Below, piece by piece: positions 9,591-28,282 of a stretch of DNA of 32,000 nt. Below the pieces are notes generated by a model, which was not told the DNA's origin, searched no databases, and worked only from the letters and a program-made list of their open reading frames with translations. This DNA comes from an archaeon. GTDB taxonomy: Archaea > Undinarchaeota > CAZHTU01 > JBDRCC01. Within the stretch, counting starts at the first letter, position 1. Each line of letters starts with the position of its first letter. Made by a program: the position numbers and the translations under genes. Location of the stretch: positions 12,215-44,214 of the forward strand of contig JBDRCC010000001.1 of NCBI GenBank assembly GCA_043822065.1, in the 5' to 3' direction.

Positions 9591-10274
9591 TTATGTTGGG
9601 TTTTTTGTTTTCCTGCACGTGGCCGCTGTACTACTAACAAGCTCGTAGGCCCTATGTGCATCTGATTTGCTTAGAATGAGAAGGATTTCATTGGGGGTGG
9701 AAATTACCTCCTCAACTGAGATTCCGGACCGCTCCAGAATCCCAAACAGATAGTAGTACAGGCCTGGTGTTTCCGCTCCTGGGAGCGAAGTTCTGATAGA
9801 AAGAGCGTGAACGTCCGTCTGGTAGTAGAGGATGCCGGGGCGGAGCTGGTCCTTGAGCCGTTCGGCTATTTGCTGGTCGGCGATTACTCCGGTCTCGACC
9901 TGCCCTTGGACCAGGTACATTGTTTCGCCCTCCGCCCAGCGGACATCCTGCAGTTGGGTGTTCAGCACGGTAAGGGAATTGGGGTTTTTCTTGAGCGTTA
10001 TCCTGACGAGCCCGCCCTTGAGGGAGAATGCCGAGCCGGCAAGGGCTTTGAGAATGTTTTCGCCGTATGGCTCTTTTTCTATGCCTTCAGCATACCTGCG
10101 TATTGCAATGACTATTGCCTCCATCGAGCAGCCCTTTATCTGGGCGCGGACTTCAGGGTAGAGCTTCCTTGCCAAGGCTGAGTGGTTAATTATGTCTTCC
10201 TTCAGCCCATCAACAAGAAACGGCTTTGCTTCTATCAGTTCTCTCACCAGGTCAGATACCTTTGATTTTTTCAT
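9591..10274 (-). CDS. hypothetical regulatory protein, possible N-terminal HTH plus C-terminal ACT-like domain
   Basis: 227 aa. The N-terminus VRELIEAKPFLVDGLKEDIINHSALARKL and C-terminus ISVEEVISTPNEILLILSKSDAHRAYELV resemble archaeal ACT-domain regulators. Recognition is weak. Confidence 0.4.
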   Translation of the reverse strand: MKKSKVSDLVRELIEAKPFLVDGLKEDIINHSALARKLYPEVRAQIKGCSMEAIVIAIRRYAEGIEKEPYGENILKALAGSAFSLKGGLVRITLKKNPNSLTVLNTQLQDVRWAEGETMYLVQGQVETGVIADQQIAERLKDQLRPGILYYQTDVHALSIRTSLPGAETPGLYYYLFGILERSGISVEEVISTPNEILLILSKSDAHRAYELVSSTAATCRKTKNPT

Positions 10275-13629: not shown

Positions 13630-13703
13630 GCCCGGATGGGGTAGTCTGGATATCCTGACGGCTTGCGGAGCCGTTGACCCGAGTTCAAATCTCGGCCCGG
13701 GCA
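13630..13703 (+). tRNA. tRNA-Arg (anticodon GCG), no encoded CCA
   Basis: Manual cloverleaf. Acceptor GCCCGGA/CCCGGGC (A7:C66 mismatch). Anticodon stem ACGGC/GCCGT with loop TTGCGGA. T-arm CCGAG-TTCAAAT-CTCGG. Discriminator A followed by CTTATTT. Confidence 0.85.
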
Positions 13704-13735
13704 CTTATTTAAAAATAGGGGAGTTTAGGGAAATC

Positions 13736-15433
13736 ATGTGGGATGACTTCAAAGCCGAGGTAAAGAAAGAGGTAAATTTTGCGCTTAAGGAGCTCGACGC
13801 GAGCCTGTCAATTGACTCGTTTGAGCAGCCGCCGGGAGGCTTCGGCGACCTCAGCACGACGGCGCCGCTCGTCCTTGCCAAAGAGCTCGGCAGGAAGCCG
13901 CGGGACATCGCAAAGGATATGCTTGACATAATCTCGACCAGGAAACACAAGCTTATTTCAAAGGTTGAGGTTGCTGGGCCCGGGTATTTGAATTTCTATT
14001 TAGATTATGACAAGTCCGCAGGCGTGCTAATTGCGGATGTCCTGAAGAAAAAGGACAACTACGGCAAGAGCGCAGTTGGAAAGAAAAAGAAGACGCTTGT
14101 CGAACACACTTCGGCAAACCCAGACGGTCCTCTGCACGTCGGGCATTTTAGGAACTCTGTCATCGGCGACTGCCTTGCCAGGCTGCTGAATTTTGGGGGA
14201 TATGACGCGTCCACCGAGTTTTACGTTAATGACGGCGGAAGGCAGATGGGAGTCTGCCTCTGGTCGTATATGAATTTCCACGCAGGGGAGAAGCCTGACG
14301 GAAAGAAGGACCACTGGGTTGCCAAGGTCTATATTGACGGGAACAAGAGGCTTGAGGGAAATGAGGAAGGGGAAAAGCAGGTTGCGCAGCTCCTTTTGGA
14401 TTATGCCGCAGGAAAGCACCAGGAAACCTGGAGCAAGGTAGTCGACTGGTGCCTTGAGGGGCACAAGCAGACGCTTGAGGGGCTTGGGATATCCGTAGAC
14501 GCTTACCACAAGGAAAGCCGTGAGGTGTGGGACGGCTCCGTAAAAAAGATGATAAAGCTCGTGGAGAAGAGCAAGAATGCGCTGAAGGATGGGGAGCTCC
14601 TCGGAATGGACCTGAAGGAGCACGGCTTCGAAAAGGAGTTCCTGGTCAGGAGGTCGGACGGGACGATACTGTACGGCGCAAAGGACCTGGCGTATCATTT
14701 TTTCCATAAGGCTGGGCAGGCGGATTGGATGATAAATGTCCTCGGCTCAGACCACAAGCTGTATTACGGGCAGCTGAGGACGGCGCTGAACCTCCTTGGC
14801 GTAAAGCAGAAATTTGACGTCGTGCACTACGAGTTCCTCACCCTGCCGGAAGGGCAGATGAGCACGCGGAGGGGGACATATATCGCGGTCGACGATCTAA
14901 TCGCAGAGGCGCGGAAGAGGGCGCTTGCCGAAGTAAAGAAGAGGCGGAGCGACCTTTCGGAGAAGGAGATGCTCAAGATTGCGGACGGGGTCGCGGTCGG
15001 CGCGCTGAGGTACTCTATAGCCTCGATTTCCCCGGAGAAGCCGATATTTTTCAAATGGGAGGACGCGCTGAACTTTGACAAGAGCTCCGCCCCCGCGCTC
15101 CAGTATACTTTTGCAAGGACGACGAGGATACTTGAAAAGTCGAAGGAGAAGCCGGACCCAAAGGTAAAGTCGCTTGAGGAAAGCGAAAAGATGCTCGTCA
15201 GGAAGATTGCAAGGTTCCAGGAGACTGTTGAAAAGGCGGCGAGCGAGCTCCGACCGCACGTAATCGCTAACTACGCCGACGAGCTGAACACGGCGTTCAA
15301 GGATTTTTACGCAAAGTGCCAGGTCATTGGCTCTGACAAGGAGGCGCAGCGGCTTGCAATAGTAAAGGCAGTCAACCAGGTAATGAAGAACTGCCTGAAT
15401 ATCCTGGGCATTGAGCCGCTGGCGGTGATGTAA
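13736..15433 (+). CDS. argS: arginine--tRNA ligase
   Basis: HVGH (HIGH-type) motif in PDGPLHVGHFRNS and an MSTRRG (KMSK-equivalent) motif. The protein ends in M, as is typical for ArgRS. The ORF track's 13628 start runs through the tRNA, so I use the ATG at 13736 (MWDDFKAEV). Confidence 0.95.
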   Translation: MWDDFKAEVKKEVNFALKELDASLSIDSFEQPPGGFGDLSTTAPLVLAKELGRKPRDIAKDMLDIISTRKHKLISKVEVAGPGYLNFYLDYDKSAGVLIADVLKKKDNYGKSAVGKKKKTLVEHTSANPDGPLHVGHFRNSVIGDCLARLLNFGGYDASTEFYVNDGGRQMGVCLWSYMNFHAGEKPDGKKDHWVAKVYIDGNKRLEGNEEGEKQVAQLLLDYAAGKHQETWSKVVDWCLEGHKQTLEGLGISVDAYHKESREVWDGSVKKMIKLVEKSKNALKDGELLGMDLKEHGFEKEFLVRRSDGTILYGAKDLAYHFFHKAGQADWMINVLGSDHKLYYGQLRTALNLLGVKQKFDVVHYEFLTLPEGQMSTRRGTYIAVDDLIAEARKRALAEVKKRRSDLSEKEMLKIADGVAVGALRYSIASISPEKPIFFKWEDALNFDKSSAPALQYTFARTTRILEKSKEKPDPKVKSLEESEKMLVRKIARFQETVEKAASELRPHVIANYADELNTAFKDFYAKCQVIGSDKEAQRLAIVKAVNQVMKNCLNILGIEPLAVM

Positions 15434-16352: not shown

Positions 16353-16429
16353 GGGCCTGTAGCGCAGACTGGAAGCGCGAGTGGCTTCGGACCACTAGGT
16401 CGGGGGTTCAAATCCCTCCAGGCCCGCCA
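16353..16429 (+). tRNA. tRNA-Arg (anticodon TCG) with genomically encoded CCA
   Basis: Acceptor GGGCCTG/CAGGCCC. D-arm GCGC-AGACTGGAA-GCGC. Anticodon stem AGTGG/CCACT with loop CTTCGGA. T-arm GGGGG-TTCAAAT-CCCTC. Discriminator G, then CCA at 16427-16429. Confidence 0.92.
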
Positions 16430-16519
16430 TAATATTTGTAGGTGGTTTTCTTTGGGGTAATGCATAGACCTTTCTTTTTCTAAAAGAAAGGGATTCGCTG
16501 AAAATCCCTCCAGGCCCGC
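16410..16519 (+). repeat. 18-nt perfect direct repeat of the tRNA-Arg(UCG) 3' end (16410-16427 and 16502-16519) bracketing a 74-bp cassette
   Basis: AAATCCCTCCAGGCCCGC occurs twice. Copy 1 is followed by CA (making CCA). Copy 2 is followed by TTATTTT, the native-type trailer. Confidence 0.9.
16469..16491. terminator. palindromic T-rich hairpin, candidate bidirectional terminator (tRNA-Arg versus serpin)
   Basis: CCTTTCTTTT-tct-AAAAGAAAGG forms a 10-bp perfect stem. Oligo-T runs read on both strands, between convergent genes. Confidence 0.6.
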
Positions 16520-16532
16520 TTATTTTCAGTTT

Positions 16533-17783
16533 TTATGCCGTTGGGTCTGCGACCTTTCCGATGAAAATGATGTTCCCGGTCTCTGTTTCCTGTATGATAA
16601 AGAGGAAGGGGTGGTCCGCGCGGAATATTTTAGGGGGCATGGGAAACCCCGTAAACTTCATTGCGACACCCGTTGCTGCTGCGACCTCGGTTCCCTCTTC
16701 GTTGACATCGATGTAAGCCTGGTGGAGCACTATGCCAATGTAAAGGTTCCGCGTGCCGTCCATCCCAGAAAAGTCTGCCTTGGCTGGCGAGAACGCCGTT
16801 GGCATTCCCATGGAGATTAGGCTGTTTGTCAGGTCGTATTTGGTCTCAAAGGTGAACTTCGGGAGATAAACATCGACATCTTCGGCTTGCAGCTTGGCTC
16901 TCCACTCGCTTAGTTTCTCAAGGGACAGTGAATTTTCTAAGGCGGAAATATCCCCATCTTTTGGCAGGAGAACCAGCATGGAGAGCTGCTCTCCCACGTA
17001 GGGCATTTCAAGTATCTGGAGGTCATCCGTTTCTGTATATTTAAAGTTGGCTTCTTCCCCCGTCAGCTTCATCATTGGAACCTTGACAGTTTTGTAAGGG
17101 CTGACGCGGAAGTCTTCGTCCCTGGTGTCCGCCTTGTCAAACTGCTTGAGCCAGTCGCCCTTGAAGTAAACCGCATTTGTAAGCACGAAGCTTGTGTCTG
17201 GGGTTATTGTGCCCTCTGGAAACAGGTCTTTTATTTTGTTGTTAGTCTGACCTTCGACCCATGTGTTGATTGTGATGCGCGATTTCTCGGTTTCCCGGAG
17301 AAAGTCAACATTGGTTGCCTTCCCGCCATAGTATGATTCGACTGTGGTGAGGTACCCGTCCAGGAACTTGTAATCCTGCTGGGCCCAGAGGGCATTCGCA
17401 GTGTGGAGCTTGTACGCCTTGCCCTCTGCATTTAGCCGGTTGTAAAGGCTGGCGAAGGATGAGCGGCGGGCGGTGTCGTCTTCTGGAAAGTGGAATACGC
17501 CCAGCATCTCCTCTGCTGTCTCGCCGCGGGCGCCTTCGTATGCCATGGCTAACGCCGTGGAAATGCTCCAGGGGGAAATGAATAGGTTCTCGCCATCGGC
17601 TTTCAGTTCAGAATACGCGGCCAGGGCAAATTGCGTATTTGAGCCTATAAGCCCGCTGACCCCCTCCGGTGTTGCCTGGCTATCGTCTGCTGGTTGAGGG
17701 GAGGCTGGCGGCCTATCGCCGGTGCAGCCCATTGCAAGAACAAGGGCAAGCAGAAGCCATACGGGGAGGATTCCATTCTTCAT
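16533..17783 (-). CDS. serpin (serine protease inhibitor), predicted lipoprotein
   Basis: 416 aa. Lipobox-like N-terminus LLALVLAMGCTGD. Serpin hinge/RCL EEGTEVAAATGVAMKF and the C-terminal signature FRADHPFLFIIQE..G.IIFIGKV. Confidence 0.9.
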   Translation of the reverse strand: MKNGILPVWLLLALVLAMGCTGDRPPASPQPADDSQATPEGVSGLIGSNTQFALAAYSELKADGENLFISPWSISTALAMAYEGARGETAEEMLGVFHFPEDDTARRSSFASLYNRLNAEGKAYKLHTANALWAQQDYKFLDGYLTTVESYYGGKATNVDFLRETEKSRITINTWVEGQTNNKIKDLFPEGTITPDTSFVLTNAVYFKGDWLKQFDKADTRDEDFRVSPYKTVKVPMMKLTGEEANFKYTETDDLQILEMPYVGEQLSMLVLLPKDGDISALENSLSLEKLSEWRAKLQAEDVDVYLPKFTFETKYDLTNSLISMGMPTAFSPAKADFSGMDGTRNLYIGIVLHQAYIDVNEEGTEVAAATGVAMKFTGFPMPPKIFRADHPFLFIIQETETGNIIFIGKVADPTA

Positions 17784-17923
17784 TGTACCTAGTAGATAAG
17801 CGCGGCGTTATATAATTTTTTTGTTTTGCAGGGCGGCAGGGGAAAAGCTTAGCTAGGGGATGCGGGCTGGTTTCAGAGTTTAGAAACCAGCATATTTATT
17901 AATGACTCTGAGTATCCTAAATT

Positions 17924-19751: not shown

Positions 19752-20453
19752 ATGCCCCTAAACGACTACAGGAAGCAGGCGGACGTGGTTCTCATGCCGC
19801 TTGCAAGGCGATGGATCGACATAAGCCCCAACAAATTCAGCGCCATGTCGATGTTCTGCGCAGTCCTCGCCGGGCTGTGCTTTTACCTTGGCGGGTGGCT
19901 GCTTGTTGGCGCGGCTGTTTTTGTTTTCCTAAACGCGCTGTTTGACGCCGTTGACGGGAAGATAGCAAGGCTGACAAAGAACACGACCCAGAGGGGGGAC
20001 TTTTTGGACCATATAATCGACAGGTATTCTGACATCGTCATCCTGCTTGGGATAATGTACTCTGCCTACGGGCACGTGGGGCTCGGAGTGTTCGCGATAA
20101 TAGGCACCGTAATGACAAGCTACATAGGCACCCAGGCTGAGGCGAGCGGCGGAAAGCGCGAACGGGGAGGCCTGCTAGGGAGGGCGGACCGGATTGTGAT
20201 AGTAATGTTCCTGCCGCTGGTGCAGGGAGCCATGCTGATGTACGGTACGCTGGTGCAGGGATTCATGCTGATGTACGGTACGCTGGTGCCGGGATTCATG
20301 CTGATGTACGGCATTGGGCAATTTTACGGGCTTTACCTGACCGGCTGGGTCCTGCTGCTTCTTGCATTAACAGGAAACTACACTGCGTTCAGGAGGTTCC
20401 AGCTGACCTGGTCGCGGATTGGCGGGAAGAAGTATAGGGGGGAAAAACTGTGA
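19752..20453 (+). CDS. CDP-alcohol phosphatidyltransferase (archaetidylinositol-phosphate / archaetidylglycerol-phosphate synthase-like)
   Basis: DGKIAR-x8-G-x3-D-x3-D (DAVDGKIARLTKNTTQRGDFLDHIIDRYSD), polytopic. Contains an in-frame 33-bp tandem repeat. Confidence 0.8.
   Translation: MPLNDYRKQADVVLMPLARRWIDISPNKFSAMSMFCAVLAGLCFYLGGWLLVGAAVFVFLNALFDAVDGKIARLTKNTTQRGDFLDHIIDRYSDIVILLGIMYSAYGHVGLGVFAIIGTVMTSYIGTQAEASGGKRERGGLLGRADRIVIVMFLPLVQGAMLMYGTLVQGFMLMYGTLVPGFMLMYGIGQFYGLYLTGWVLLLLALTGNYTAFRRFQLTWSRIGGKKYRGEKL
20221..20311 (+). repeat. 33-bp in-frame tandem repeat, 2.75 units, inside the CDP-alcohol phosphatidyltransferase gene
   Basis: Units at 20221-20253, 20254-20286 (31/33 identical to unit 1) and a partial unit 20287-20311 (24/25 to unit 2). 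Encodes VQGAMLMYGTL / VQGFMLMYGTL / VPGFMLMYG. Confidence 0.95.
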
Positions 20454-23254: not shown

Positions 23255-24187
23255 TTATTTAAACTTTTCCTTGAAAATCTGAGTTCCAGCGCTTCCGGAG
23301 ACTGCAGCCTCGAGGTTGTCTATCGAGGTGATGACCGCACGCTTGCCGCCTGACTCGAGGAATTCTATCGCCGCCTCCACCTTTGGGCCCATGCTCCCTG
23401 GGGGGAAGTGCCCCGCAGCAAGGTATTTTTTCGCCTCTGCGGCGGTCAGGCTGTTCAGCTCGACCTCGGTAGGCTTCCCGTAGTTGAGCGACACCTTGTC
23501 GACGTCGGTCAGGAGAATCATTGCGTCCGCCTTTATCTCCTGCGCAAGCTTTGAGGTCGCAAGGTCCTTGTCAATGACTGCCTCCACCCCGCGAATTTTC
23601 TCGCCGCGCTCAATCATCGGTATCCCTCCGCCGCCGCAGGCAATGACAATTATGCCCATGCGGACGAGCCGCCTTATCTCCTCGCGCTCTAATATCCTCA
23701 GGGGCTTTGGCGAAGGGACGACGCGCCGGTAGCCCTTGCCGTGGATTGGTATCGTCTGGAAGGGAAGCTTTTCGGCCTCCCCTTTGGAGTAGTACGGCCC
23801 TATCGGCTTTGTCGGGTTCTTGAAGGCGGGGTCGTTTTCGTCGACGACGACGCCGGTGACTATCGTGGCAATCAGCTTGTCGACTTTCAGCTTGCGGAAC
23901 TCGTTTTCGAGCGCACGCTCTATGAGATAGCCGAGCAGGCCCTGGCTTTCCGCGACGAGGACTTCAAGCGGCATTTTCGGGACGGCGTGGGCCGCCTCCT
24001 GCTGGAGGAGGAGGTAGCCAATCTGCGGGCCGTTGCCGTGAGTGAGCGCAATGTTGTACTTGGCGGCTAAGTGCGCTATCTGGCGGCATGGCTCCGAGAG
24101 GTTCTTCCTCTGCTCGTCAAACGTGCCCTTCTGTCCGTGCTTTATCAGGGCATTTCCGCCGAGCGCGATAACAATAGTTTCACCCAT
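23255..24187 (-). CDS. arcC: carbamate kinase
   Basis: The N-terminus MGETIVIALGGNAL is typical of carbamate kinase, and the fold is the amino-acid-kinase type throughout. The ORF track's start at 24238 would overlap argF, so I use the ATG at 24187. Confidence 0.9.
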   Translation of the reverse strand: MGETIVIALGGNALIKHGQKGTFDEQRKNLSEPCRQIAHLAAKYNIALTHGNGPQIGYLLLQQEAAHAVPKMPLEVLVAESQGLLGYLIERALENEFRKLKVDKLIATIVTGVVVDENDPAFKNPTKPIGPYYSKGEAEKLPFQTIPIHGKGYRRVVPSPKPLRILEREEIRRLVRMGIIVIACGGGGIPMIERGEKIRGVEAVIDKDLATSKLAQEIKADAMILLTDVDKVSLNYGKPTEVELNSLTAAEAKKYLAAGHFPPGSMGPKVEAAIEFLESGGKRAVITSIDNLEAAVSGSAGTQIFKEKFK

Positions 24188-24226
24188 GGGAAAATATAAA
24201 GCTTCGTTCTTTATTAACCATGCGAA
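24188..24226. promoter_or_regulatory. 39-bp divergent promoter region between arcC and argF with two TATA-like boxes
   Basis: AATATAAA (24193-24200) is about 30 nt upstream of the argF ATG. TTTATTAA (24209-24216, TTAATAAA on the minus strand) is about 25 nt upstream of the arcC ATG. This implies leaderless mRNAs. Confidence 0.55.
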
Positions 24227-25141
24227 ATGGTGCGGCATTTACTTTCTATAAACGACATGACCAAAGAGAGGGTAGAGAAGATACTCGACAAAGCCTCCGA
24301 GCTTAAGGCTGGACGGAAGAGACTTGCAGGCAGGGACGCGCTGCCCGGGAAAAACCTGGCGATGATTTTCGAGCGGGCTTCGACCAGGACGAGAATAAGC
24401 TTTGACCTGGCGATAACCGAGCTCGGCGGGCATGCGATGGAATTGAGCCCGAGCACCCTGGCGATGAGCAAGGGGGAGAGCCTCGAGGACACTGCGCATG
24501 TCATGGAGCGGTTCTACGACGCGATAATGATACGGACCTACAGCCACGAGACGCTGAAGAGGTGGGCGTCGGTCGCAAAAATCCCGATAATAAACGGGCT
24601 TGACGACGTCGAGCACCCATGCCAGGCGATATGCGACATGCTCACCGTAAGGGAGCACTTTGGCAAGCTGAAGGGGCTGAACTTCGTCTTCGTTGGGGAC
24701 TGCGACCAGAACATGGCAACTTCTCTGGCGCTCATTTGCGGCATGATGGGCCTGAACTTCACCGCCGCATGCCCGAAGGAATACCAGACCAAGGGCTGGG
24801 TCCAGAAGCAGATAAAGGGCAAGATAAACTTCAGAATCGAGCACGACCTCAAGAAGGCGGCAAAGGATGCAGATGTGATATACACTGACATCTGGGTGAA
24901 CCCAGGCTTCGAGAAGGAGAAGGAAGCGAGGCTGAAAATCCTGAGACCGTACCAGGTGAACGAGGAAGTGGCGAAAAGCGCTCCGGACGACTACGTTTTC
25001 ATGCACTGCCTGCCAGCCAACAGGGGGCAGGAGGTCACGGACGAGGTAATCGACAGCAAGAACTCGATAGTCTTCGAGCAGGCTGAAAACAGATTGCACG
25101 GGCAGAAGGGCATATTGATTGATTTGATTACGGGGCTATAG
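24227..25141 (+). CDS. argF: ornithine carbamoyltransferase
   Basis: STRTRISF (carbamoyl-phosphate binding), HPCQ and HCLPA motifs. 304 aa. Confidence 0.93.
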   Translation: MVRHLLSINDMTKERVEKILDKASELKAGRKRLAGRDALPGKNLAMIFERASTRTRISFDLAITELGGHAMELSPSTLAMSKGESLEDTAHVMERFYDAIMIRTYSHETLKRWASVAKIPIINGLDDVEHPCQAICDMLTVREHFGKLKGLNFVFVGDCDQNMATSLALICGMMGLNFTAACPKEYQTKGWVQKQIKGKINFRIEHDLKKAAKDADVIYTDIWVNPGFEKEKEARLKILRPYQVNEEVAKSAPDDYVFMHCLPANRGQEVTDEVIDSKNSIVFEQAENRLHGQKGILIDLITGL

Positions 25142-25148
25142 AGAAAAG

Positions 25149-25156
25149 TTTTAAAC
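25149..25156 (+). promoter_or_regulatory. TATA-like box (TTTTAAAC) upstream of tRNA-Arg(UCU)
   Basis: The TTTAA core lies 31 nt upstream of the tRNA 5' end. The identical octamer also occurs at 15-22 and 116-123. Confidence 0.5.
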
Positions 25157-25180
25157 TGCAGAATTGATTAGTCGGTTTAG

Positions 25181-25290
25181 GCTCCGGTAGCCTAGTTTGG
25201 ATAAGGCGTCAACGGAAATTGGAAAAACCCAAATCCGGCGCAAGCCTTCTAAGCTGAAGACCGCGGGTTCAAATCCCGCCCGGAGCGCCA
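25181..25290 (+). tRNA. tRNA-Arg (anticodon TCT) with a 32-nt intron at non-canonical position 29/30 and encoded CCA
   Basis: Acceptor GCTCCGG/CCGGAGC. D-arm GCCT-AGTTTGGATA-AGGC. After removal of 25212-25243 the anticodon stem is TCA|GC/GCTGA with loop CTTCTAA. T-arm GCGGG-TTCAAAT-CCCGC. Discriminator G, then CCA at 25288-25290. Confidence 0.85.
25212..25243 (+). other. tRNA intron (bulge-helix-bulge substrate), position 29/30
   Basis: Central 4-bp helix 25206-25209 (GCGT) with 25238-25241 (GCGC). 3-nt bulges CAA (25210-25212) and AAG (25242-25244). Inner helix CGGA (25213-25216) with TCCG (25234-25237). Cutting after the 2nd bulge nucleotide on each strand gives exactly the exon junction needed for a perfect anticodon stem. 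Confidence 0.8.
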
Positions 25291-25392
25291 CTTTATAGTT
25301 CTGAGCGGAGCGAAGACTAAGGTAGTTTTCTTTTTCGTCGACGTTTTTCTTTTTCTAAAAGAAAAAGGCCGTGAGAATCCCACCCGGAGCGC
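25272..25392 (+). repeat. 17-nt direct repeat (16/17) of the tRNA-Arg(UCU) 3' end (25272-25288 and 25376-25392) bracketing an 87-bp cassette
   Basis: AATCCCGCCCGGAGCGC versus AATCCCACCCGGAGCGC. Copy 1 is followed by CA (making CCA). Copy 2 is followed by TTATTTT. Confidence 0.9.
25344..25366. terminator. palindromic T-rich hairpin, candidate bidirectional terminator (tRNA-Arg versus membrane protein gene)
   Basis: TTTTTCTTTT-tct-AAAAGAAAAA forms a 10-bp stem. It contains the 19-nt core TTTCTTTTTCTAAAAGAAA, identical to 16471-16489. Confidence 0.6.
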
Positions 25393-25397
25393 TTATT

Positions 25398-26078
25398 TTA
25401 TTCAGAGGCGCCGAATGTGTTTTGAGTATTTTTTGCTGGCGGCTTTTTTTCAGTAGGTGCAGGCTTTGCCTTTTCAGGCTCCTCCTCGTCCATGCCGCCG
25501 AAGCTACCAAAGTCATCTTTTTCCACTGCCCCTGGCAACGGCTCCTCAGTTTTTGGAGCCGGGAGAACCTTGGTCACTATGAACTCCACGCCGAAATAGA
25601 AAATGACGAAGAAAAGCAGGATGCCGACAAGGGTCGGTATCGTGTCTACCGGGCGGATGAGGTAGGGTGAGTAAATGAACGGGGTGAACACTATCAGGAA
25701 GTAGGACACCTCGCGTATTCGCCCTATCGCCTTCGCGACCTCACGCCCCTGGATTGCCATACGCATTATGATTAGCCCGTAGATGAGCATTGCAACTGCA
25801 ACGCCGACCTTGAACGCGACGAGGGGAGTTATCCTGGCGATGTTGAGCCGCGAGAACATTGTCCTAATCCAGTCAATCCCTACCCACAGGGCAGTAAGCC
25901 CGTTTGCGGCGGCGTTGCCCAAGTCGGTCCCCCTCCGCTCCTGGTAGTAGTCGTTGACAATCCAGTTTAGGTATACTGGGATAAGTATCCAAAGCATCTC
26001 CGGGTTGTCGTATGGGCCGTAAACAAAGACCTTCCAAAGCCCCTGGGGGATGAGAATGAGGAACTCTACAAATTCCAT
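25398..26078 (-). CDS. hypothetical integral membrane protein with charged, low-complexity C-terminal tail
   Basis: 226 aa. Several hydrophobic segments and a C-terminus rich in E/K/P (DEEEPEKAKPAPTEKKPPAK). No family recognised. Confidence 0.6.
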   Translation of the reverse strand: MEFVEFLILIPQGLWKVFVYGPYDNPEMLWILIPVYLNWIVNDYYQERRGTDLGNAAANGLTALWVGIDWIRTMFSRLNIARITPLVAFKVGVAVAMLIYGLIIMRMAIQGREVAKAIGRIREVSYFLIVFTPFIYSPYLIRPVDTIPTLVGILLFFVIFYFGVEFIVTKVLPAPKTEEPLPGAVEKDDFGSFGGMDEEEPEKAKPAPTEKKPPAKNTQNTFGASE

Positions 26079-26989: not shown

Positions 26990-28282
26990 ATGAAAGAAGT
27001 CTTAGATAAGATTACCCCTTCCAAAGAGGAGCGGGAGAGGGTCCACAGGCTTGCGCAGGAGATGGTCGCGGAGATACGGAAGCTTGGCTACCATGCAGAG
27101 GTGATGGGCTCAATCGCGAAGGAGACCTGGGTCTCAGGCGAGGCTGACATCGACATATTTGTTTTCTTCAGCCAGAAGACGACAAAGCAGGAGCTAGAAA
27201 GGAAAGGCCTGGAGCTCGGGAAGAAAATATTCAAGAAGCTCGGGGGGAGCTTTGAGATTGGGTTTGCCGAGCACCCTTACGTCAAGGGCGAGATAAGGGG
27301 AATAGGCGCGGACATTGTACCTTGCTACAAGCTCAAGAAGGTCGAGATAAAGAGCGCGGTGGACCGGACGCCGTTCCACACGCATTACGTCAACAAAAGG
27401 CTGAAGAAGCCCCAGAGGAAAGAAGTCCTCCTGCTCAAGCAGTTCTGCCGCGGGCAGGAGATATACGGCTCCGAGCTGAAGACGGAGGGGCTTTCCGGCT
27501 ACCTCTGCGAGATTCTCATACTCAGGTACGGGACGTTCTCAGACTGCATCGACGCGATTTCGAAGTGGAAGGAGGGCAAGATAATAGACATTGAGGAGCA
27601 TTACCTCAAGGACGAAGCCGAAAAGCTCAGGCAGCAGTTCAGGGCCCCGCTGATAGCCATAGACCCTGTCGACCTGAACAGGAACGTTGCCGCGGTGCTA
27701 AGCAGGAAGAACCTGCTCAAACTGATAAAAGCTGCAAAGGGGTACAGGCAGAAGCCGTCTGAAAAGTTCTTTTTCCAGGGAAGGGTTGAGCCCATGAGCC
27801 CAAGGAGAATAAAGGGCTGCATGTTTGTCGTCTTCCCGCGGGAAAAGGTGCTTGACGACATAATCTACCCGCAGATGAGGTCGACTGCCAAGAAGATATC
27901 CACCGCGCTCATGATTAACGGGTTTGAGGTGCTGAAGGAGGGCGCCTGGGCGAACGGGAGCTGCGTCCTTGTGTTCAGGCTCAAGTCTGCAAGGATTCCA
28001 AAGAAGTACAAGCACTACGGCCCCCCGCTTGAGATGAAGGAGCACACCGCAAGGTTCCGGAAGAAGTACAAGTCTGTGAAAAAGGAAGGAAAGCGGCTTG
28101 TCGTCCTGAGGGAAAGGAAGTACCAGGAGGCTGACGCCTTCCTTAAGGCTTACCTGAGGAAGGAAAAAGGCATCGCAAGCCACCTTGACGCAAAAAAGGC
28201 GAAGATGGTAACGGATGCCAAAAGCATTTTCAGGGAGGATTTCGGCCAGTGGCTCACAAAGTGGTACAATGAAAAAGACTAA
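26990..28282 (+). CDS. cca: CCA-adding enzyme (archaeal class I tRNA nucleotidyltransferase)
   Basis: 430 aa. GSIAKETWVSGEADIDIFVFF nucleotidyltransferase motif, and an N-terminus and length typical of archaeal Cca. Confidence 0.92.
   Translation: MKEVLDKITPSKEERERVHRLAQEMVAEIRKLGYHAEVMGSIAKETWVSGEADIDIFVFFSQKTTKQELERKGLELGKKIFKKLGGSFEIGFAEHPYVKGEIRGIGADIVPCYKLKKVEIKSAVDRTPFHTHYVNKRLKKPQRKEVLLLKQFCRGQEIYGSELKTEGLSGYLCEILILRYGTFSDCIDAISKWKEGKIIDIEEHYLKDEAEKLRQQFRAPLIAIDPVDLNRNVAAVLSRKNLLKLIKAAKGYRQKPSEKFFFQGRVEPMSPRRIKGCMFVVFPREKVLDDIIYPQMRSTAKKISTALMINGFEVLKEGAWANGSCVLVFRLKSARIPKKYKHYGPPLEMKEHTARFRKKYKSVKKEGKRLVVLRERKYQEADAFLKAYLRKEKGIASHLDAKKAKMVTDAKSIFREDFGQWLTKWYNEKD

Follow-up and report, generated by a model that had tools for sequence, protein, structure and literature searches.

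Each of the two short cassettes that follow tRNA-Arg genes in the archaeal DNA analysed here (32,000 nucleotides, hereafter the window) appears to be a copy of a non-autonomous mobile or repeat element, denoted E, which was inserted with duplication of its target and now likely works as a two-way terminator; we put the probability of this reading at about 0.6. Insertion with target duplication is what we infer from the sequences compared below: one and the same interior is bracketed by unrelated repeats, each belonging to its own host, and tRNA-Arg(UCU) carries E at four sites in different lineages, which together argue that E moves and that its repeats are derived from the target.

Two cassettes behind tRNA-Arg genes

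The features of the two cassettes are as follows.

16353-16429, plus strand: tRNA-Arg(UCG) with encoded CCA (ARAGORN, Rfam and sequence)
16410-16427, plus strand: repeat copy 1 (UCG), starting at T-loop A57
16428-16501, plus strand: element E, UCG copy, interior of 74 nt (match of covariance model R1 at 16440-16505, 56.5 bits)
16446-16453, plus strand: box 1 (UCG)
16471-16489, plus strand: 19-mer core (UCG)
16502-16519, plus strand: repeat copy 2 (UCG), 18/18 identical to copy 1, then TTATTTT
16533-16535, minus strand: stop codon of the convergent serpin gene
25181-25290, plus strand: tRNA-Arg(UCU) with encoded CCA (Rfam tRNA match 25181-25287, 49 bits)
25272-25288, plus strand: repeat copy 1 (UCU), AATCCCGCCCGGAGCGC, from T-loop A58 through the discriminator plus C; functional tRNA 3' end
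25289-25375, plus strand: element E, UCU copy, interior of 87 nt, with variable left arm, box 1, linker, hairpin and right arm (R1 match 25320-25380, 59.4 bits)
25326-25333, plus strand: box 1 (UCU), TTTTCTTT, near-invariant columns of the family
25346-25364, plus strand: core hairpin (UCU), TTTCTTTT-TCT-AAAAGAAA
25376-25392, plus strand: repeat copy 2 (UCU), AATCCCACCCGGAGCGC, 16/17 identical to copy 1
25398-26078, minus strand: convergent ORF of 226 aa, stop codon 25398-25400, 5 nt past copy 2

The gene for tRNA-Arg(UCU) ends in ...AATCCCGCCCGGAGCG-CCA, and its terminal segment AATCCCGCCCGGAGCGC at 25272-25288 is followed by CA, which yields the CCA at 25288-25290. The initial annotation had noticed that this segment recurs at 25376-25392 with a single G-to-A change, that the second occurrence is followed by TTATTTT and that it lies 5 nt from the stop codon of a convergent gene; both strings, their coordinates and their surroundings were confirmed, the trailer (25393-25399) being the same as that of the UCG cassette. 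The change turns CCCGC into CCCAC within the T-stem's 3' strand; copy 1 therefore makes the better tRNA end, and its assignment as the functional one holds. By manual parsing, this tRNA gene contains an intron of about 32 nt (approximately 25212-25243) located 5' of the anticodon loop, at about position 29/30; the intron is free of E. If its borders and non-canonical site have been placed correctly, they would imply a splicing endonuclease of broad specificity. The gene was missed by ARAGORN and found by Rfam.

The 19-mer TTTCTTTTTCTAAAAGAAA occurs without mismatch in the interiors of both cassettes, at 25346-25364 and 16471-16489, as against 0.01 chance matches expected. The interiors also share a block around box 1 that reads GGTAGTTTTCTTT from 25321 (UCU) and GGTGGTTTTCTTT from 16441 (UCG), with GGTRGTTTTCTTT common to both; the spacing from the core to copy 2 is 11 nt and 12 nt, respectively. 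All of this, as well as the 87-nt length of the UCU interior, is as originally described. Beyond the box-1 block and the 19-mer the interiors align poorly. Box 1 and the core are all that the two copies have in common, although their target repeats are nearly perfect, which would be unusual for recent copies of a single source and suggests either old insertions under sequence constraint or the coexistence of distinct subfamilies. The UCG copy belongs to a subfamily of the form TTTTCTTT-GGGRTAAT...AGACC-core-GGGAT that is also found in Micrarchaeota and in unclassified archaea (L011, L017, L029, L088, L091, L152). Covariance model R1 scores these two copies at 59 and 56 bits and finds no other in the window, the next match, an unrelated one, reaching 12.5 bits.

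Both copies sit after intact tRNAs, outside the mature tRNA. At both borders of each cassette the tRNA terminus is present as a direct repeat of 17 or 18 nt, which extends from the T-loop to one nucleotide past the discriminator. The repeat scores of the two cassettes, 14 and 18, are reached by none of 591 mismatched left/right flank pairs taken from other copies. Upon inspection, neither interior (CATAATATTT...CGCTGA, CACTTTATAG...CCGTGAG) has terminal inverted repeats; both open with CA straight after the final C of the repeat. As the initial annotation had argued, duplication of a tRNA-plus-trailer unit does not fit such a pattern, in which the interior is the same and the repeats are host-specific.

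The remaining tRNA genes of the window, those for tRNA-Pro and tRNA-Arg(GCG), have neither a cassette nor an encoded CCA and are directly followed by T-rich trailers. In particular, the tRNA-Arg(GCG) gene ends in the discriminator plus CTTATTT, and in both cassettes CTTATTT follows copy 2, not copy 1, as it would be left by insertion between a tRNA end and its original trailer. Without the insert, the spacers between the tRNAs and the convergent stop codons would be only 6 nt (UCU) and 14 nt (UCG) long, so any insertion there had to overlap a gene end. The cassettes are neighboured by genes for a PfkB kinase, a serpin and an ornithine carbamoyltransferase and by an ORF without a Pfam match; no integrase was found among ten window ORFs scanned, all four cassette-flanking ORFs included.

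Several further observations concern the window at large. An encoded CCA is present only in the two cassette-bearing tRNAs (16427-16429 and 25288-25290), which, with four tRNAs, could be due to chance; a gene for the CCA-adding enzyme (26990-28282) lies 1.7 kb downstream of tRNA-Arg(UCU). The surroundings have an arginine theme (13630-15433, 16353-16429, 23255-25290): tRNA-Arg(GCG) is located about 30 nt upstream of the gene for arginyl-tRNA synthetase, and two more tRNA-Arg genes, ornithine carbamoyltransferase and an amino-acid kinase all lie within 12 kb. Three tandem 33-nt repeats (20215-20313; 88-94% identical to the first copy) inside the ORF 19752-20453 encode an 11-residue protein repeat. 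Finally, a T-rich 18-mer (TTTTTGTTTTCCTGCACG-like) occurs in five copies (3548, 6543, 9602, 17818, 19918). Of these, the copy at 9602 belongs to the T-rich sequence that follows tRNA-Pro, and that at 17818 immediately precedes the start codon of the serpin gene; the 18-mer may serve this genome as a promoter or terminator motif.

Element E in archaeal genomes

The 19-mer was searched in one genome per prokaryotic species, and box 1 together with the core in metagenomes. These scans yielded at least 120 genome loci and at least 120 metagenome loci and, with the window, at least 198 distinct copies of E, counts that are biased because an exact core (and, for metagenomes, also an exact box 1) was required. 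Among the 124 core matches listed from the genome scan, about half have an exact box 1, TTTTCTTT, 14-31 nt upstream of the core. Among the 80 titles listed, the box-1-bearing matches with a named source come nearly all from archaeal metagenome-assembled genomes (MAGs), the hosts listed including Woese-, Nano-, Micr-, Pace-, Iain-, Aenigm- and Altiarchaeota, Methanophagales (ANME-1), Syntrophoarchaeum and Methanosarcinales. Where box 1 is missing, the 19-mer matches come mostly from bacteria and look fortuitous. In a few bacterial MAGs (L010 from Thermodesulfobacteriota, L049 from Selenomonadaceae, also L092 and L104), however, the 19-mer follows TTTTCTTTGCC and has a short complementary stem that closes it; in some cases a variant hairpin lies in tandem with it. 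These may represent a bacterial branch of the family. A single match was found in 2.9 million viral contigs, in an uninformative context. E is multi-copy, dispersed and non-coding: there are several copies per genome (e.g. L004, L028 and L048 from one MAG), and the interiors are too short for a protein. When Rfam was run over the cassettes at gathering and permissive thresholds, only tRNA passed, with nothing else better than an E-value of about 0.1, and a literature search that included the 19-mer sequence retrieved no description of E. E is a small non-coding archaeal hairpin element that is apparently undescribed.

The element measures about 50-110 nt: a variable left arm of 7-108 nt is followed by box 1, then by a linker of 6-19 nt and the hairpin. 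The hairpin has the invariant core (8 bp with the loop TCT) at its top and, at its base, 3-9 more pairs that are variable yet complementary. The hairpin is supported: covariation in the basal stem is 0.271 versus 0.116 in shuffles, with none of 500 shuffles reaching 0.271 and every slid register scoring lower. A large subfamily, mostly from DPANN genomes, has the fixed flanks GTAGCT-core-AACCCA. In five loci (L159, L164, L203, L224, L124) a longer DPANN-type element is bordered by the imperfect inverted segments GAGCGAYTTCGTGG ... CCACGTGCGAGRTCGC, and that of L159 is flanked by a 32-nt direct repeat. Box 1 is an exact mirror of the 5' arm of the hairpin, as a pyrimidine-motif triple helix would require; as a side possibility, box 1 could lie in the major groove of the hairpin in a U.A-U / C+.G-C triple helix.

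The consensus of archaeal oligo-T terminators is a run of at least five Ts, or TTTTTYT, that immediately follows the gene on its non-template strand. E contains TTTTTCT inside the core and TTTTCTTT upstream; in RNA terms, the tRNA strand reads U4CU3 and then U3CU5CU, and the other strand U3CU4. Hence, E in the window is probably a two-way transcription stop for both convergent genes, and its retention there would be favoured by the arrest of both convergent transcripts.

The settings of E were counted by means of ARAGORN, a naive ORF caller and manual parsing; since ARAGORN proved too permissive after deletion of candidate introns (almost any deletion was called a tRNA), the placement of E within tRNA genes relies on manual parsing. 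The initial annotation had tied E to tRNA 3' ends with host-specific repeats. This stands for 11 cases of sense E behind a tRNA 3' end with a 12-20 nt repeat of that very end (two in the window, two in tandem in L019, and L197, L141, L125, L145, L156, L059 and L227), but not as a general rule: an ARAGORN tRNA lies within 150 nt in 46 of 198 copies (23%), versus 6 of 576 control positions in the same loci. In the 11 cases the repeats start in the T-loop or T-stem and end 0-8 nt past the discriminator. Antisense E is found ahead of tRNA 5' ends, with repeats of positions from about -2 to 14 (nine cases), and with its hairpin end 4-14 nt from a tRNA 3' end, without a repeat (13 loci). E also resides in anticodon-loop introns, nearly always antisense, and inside 23S rRNA genes, antisense (L024, L127, L182, L195). 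Nine further loci, parsed by hand, have antisense E in T-loop introns at about position 59/60, the hosts including tRNA-Arg(UCU), tRNA-Arg(CCU), tRNA-Lys(UUU) and the tRNA-Ala of an rRNA operon; at the Rfam gathering threshold only one of these nine genes (L075) gave a tRNA match, and that a partial one (model positions 8-63), the other eight being unsupported by any tool. Four tRNA genes (L031, L091, L183, L208) have two introns each, one in the D-loop or anticodon loop and one in the T-loop, and were missed by ARAGORN and, at the gathering threshold, by Rfam.

The commonest setting is just downstream of the stop codons of protein genes. In 36 copies, a gene that is read towards E has its stop codon no more than 25 nt from the hairpin end, as compared to 6 copies for the box-1 side. 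The ORFs adjacent to these 36 copies fall into 31 unrelated protein clusters. The window copies, facing the convergent serpin gene and the 226-aa ORF, match this setting too. Since the adjacent ORFs are unrelated, the idea that E is the 3' UTR of a particular gene, or marks where a single autonomous element ends, was rejected.

Across lineages, reading of the flanks by eye places E at four sites of tRNA-Arg(UCU), namely in a T-loop intron (L031), in an anticodon-loop intron (L021), as an antisense trailer (L173) and, in the window, as a sense trailer with repeat, which points to independent insertions. The orientation pattern fits selection: since the sense strand bears TTTTCTTT and TTTTTCT, which match the terminator consensus, sense copies should be acceptable only where a transcription unit ends, and antisense copies within such units. 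Selection alone offers no obvious explanation for the uniform sense orientation of the 11 copies with repeats at tRNA 3' ends.

A repeat score of 12 or more is found for 26 of 198 copies (about 13%, the fraction in which repeats are clear) as compared to 4 of 591 mismatched flank pairs, an enrichment of about 20-fold. The repeats are 12-20 nt long, with a mode of 16-18, and have wholly different sequences at sites with one and the same interior. Protein-gene 3' ends, including the stop codon, are duplicated as well (L233, L205, L020). On the hairpin side, the start of the repeat keeps a constant distance from the hairpin and adjoins the base of the stem; in four independent copies (L197, L141, L027, L079) it directly follows AACCCA. 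The left arm, in contrast, is ragged. Inspection of repeat-bounded copies revealed no inverted similarity at their ends; together with the variable repeat length, the lack of terminal inverted repeats argues against a classical transposase event. Tandem arrays of repeat plus E occur in L019, L063 and L188, and single mismatches in copy 2 at L125, L141 and L019. Some tRNA-end repeats reach 2-8 nt into the genomic trailer, so they were copied from genomic DNA and not from mature tRNA; an origin of copy 1 plus CCA from cDNA of a mature tRNA was rejected on the same grounds. Taken together, about 20 independent cases from other archaea, in which E is flanked by duplicated termini of its own host tRNA, lend support to the earlier proposal that one element family or one mechanism generates target-derived repeats.

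Possible origins of the cassettes

In the scenario that we favour, E would enter the 3' end of each tRNA-Arg gene, and the target segment from A57 (UCG) or A58 (UCU) to 1 nt past the discriminator (18 or 17 nt) would be duplicated; copy 1 would keep the tRNA intact, and copy 2 would stay joined to the original CTTATTTT trailer and the convergent protein gene. E itself encodes no mobility function and would be moved by an outside enzyme or process. Before the insertion, ...GCCCGC would have run straight into TTATTTTCAG, and the candidate empty junctions are ...CCAGGCCCGC joined to TTATTTTCAG, or ...CCCGGAGCGC joined to TTATTTTATTC. No empty site or presence/absence polymorphism was found for this genome, which has no close relatives in the databases (for the window proteins there is one 100% match, the next best being 50-65% identical). 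With one precise and one ragged end and with repeats of variable length, the copies resemble products of target-primed or template-switch copying.

The latter resemblance invites an enzyme-free version of events, in which E would spread by template switching or break-induced copying: a broken or nicked DNA end would copy E from elsewhere in the genome, the polymerase would drop off at the base of the hairpin, and re-annealing of the end upstream would duplicate the target. Such a model would account for the precise hairpin-side end (...AACCCA and then the repeat in L197, L141, L027 and L079), the ragged left arm of 7-108 nt, the repeats of 12-20 nt and the lack of inverted termini, but hundreds of cross-phylum copies with an invariant 19-mer would be hard to reach by repair accidents, and we consider it unlikely. 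Quite improbable, in our opinion, is the reading of the cassettes as remnants or miniatures of integrase-type elements of the SSV or pNOB8 style, with the repeats as attL/attR. Typical att sites of such elements extend from the T-loop to slightly beyond the 3' end, as do the repeats in the window. Integration at tRNA 5' or 3' termini is, moreover, known to leave a reconstituted tRNA and a direct repeat of the terminus (PMC3293823), just as seen here. However, the interiors, of 74 and 87 nt, contain no ORF, the ten window ORFs scanned include no integrase, and unrelated repeats at many tRNAs and protein-gene ends would require a separate attP for each site; E also resides inside introns and rRNA genes, and there is only the one match among 2.9 million viral contigs.

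Could the cassette instead be a functional part of the pre-tRNA, with copy 2 providing an alternative 3' strand of the acceptor and T-stem, and copy 1 plus E acting like a T-loop intron or a regulatory trailer? In minimum-free-energy folds the 5' acceptor strand does pair with copy 2, and the T-loop introns that contain E elsewhere begin at about 59/60, adjoining the repeat starts at A57/A58 in the window. Yet copy 2 gathers changes (the break in the T-stem here and the single mismatches in L125, L141 and L019), the T-loop introns hold E in the opposite orientation, and E is found with repeats at protein-gene ends as well, which makes this role very improbable. A counter-reading raised in essence already in the initial annotation, in which the shared blocks represent a generic terminator motif of local origin and the tRNA-end repeats reflect independent slippage, is correct in so far as the motif also occurs between non-tRNA genes; in its favour, E is T-rich on both strands and is usually located right behind stop codons (36 copies with one within 25 nt of the hairpin end versus 6 on the box-1 side). 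The repeats, however, with their approximately 20-fold enrichment next to E, are too systematic for independent slippage, an exact 19-mer together with an exact 8-mer at similar spacing across archaeal phyla is not convergence, and E is found inside tRNA and rRNA genes, so that we give this reading hardly any credence.

Returning to insertion with target duplication, a broader version can be envisaged, in which E, as a mobile element shared across phyla, would give rise to archaeal introns. It would enter genes for stable RNAs at the loops of their arms (D-, anticodon- and T-loop); the orientation without the strong T-runs would survive as a spliceable intron of tRNA or 23S rRNA, and the other orientation only at gene ends rescued by target duplication, as in the window. 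We offer this extension tentatively and deem it rather doubtful.

Implications and comparison with known systems

The reach of E, which extends over introns at several positions, leaders and trailers with duplications of the host gene, and the downstream flanks of protein genes in DPANN and methane-cycling archaea, makes this single, readily recognisable sequence a concrete marker for tracking the gain and spread of archaeal tRNA and rRNA introns, and it bears on the question of why the ends of tRNA genes are recombination hot spots. E could also serve as a portable two-way terminator where transcription signals are poorly known. For annotation, the duplicated tRNA ends and long introns pose a problem in that they defeat standard tRNA finders.

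Several known systems share some features with E. Casposons reportedly enter the 3' end of tRNA genes with a target duplication of 14-15 bp, leave the tRNA intact and form tandem insertions; E is like them in the tRNA 3'-end target, in a duplication of about 15 bp (17 and 18 nt in the window) and in the tandems, but differs in having no terminal inverted repeats, no Cas1 or polymerase genes and repeats of 12-20 nt, and in its presence also at tRNA 5' ends, in introns and at protein-gene ends. Elements of the SSV/pNOB8 type, like the E cassettes, come with a reconstituted tRNA and a direct repeat of its terminus (PMC3293823), whereas E has an interior of less than 100 nt, no integrase and a different repeat sequence at every site.

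Among bacterial repeats, REP/BIME, Correia, ERIC and MITEs are, like E, short non-coding multi-copy hairpins located after genes, and such small dispersed repeats are often credited with terminator or mRNA-stabilising roles (cf. PMC3184786). E is, in contrast, archaeal, with an A/T-rich hairpin, no inverted termini, long and variable target repeats, and residence in tRNA and rRNA introns; measured against MITEs specifically, it is multi-copy, non-coding and dispersed but lacks the terminal inverted repeats. Target-primed retroposition of the SINE/LINE type is similar in its precise end near a conserved stem-loop, its ragged other end and its variable duplications; E has no linked reverse transcriptase and no poly(A) tail, so the likeness is one of resemblance only. 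Finally, the bulge-helix-bulge introns of archaea, for which 'intron transposition' is said to have occurred in Thermoproteales, resemble E in that related sequences are found at different positions of different tRNAs, the T-loop included; E differs from them in that its copies in the window lie outside the mature tRNA, in its additional presence at protein genes and in its cross-phylum distribution.
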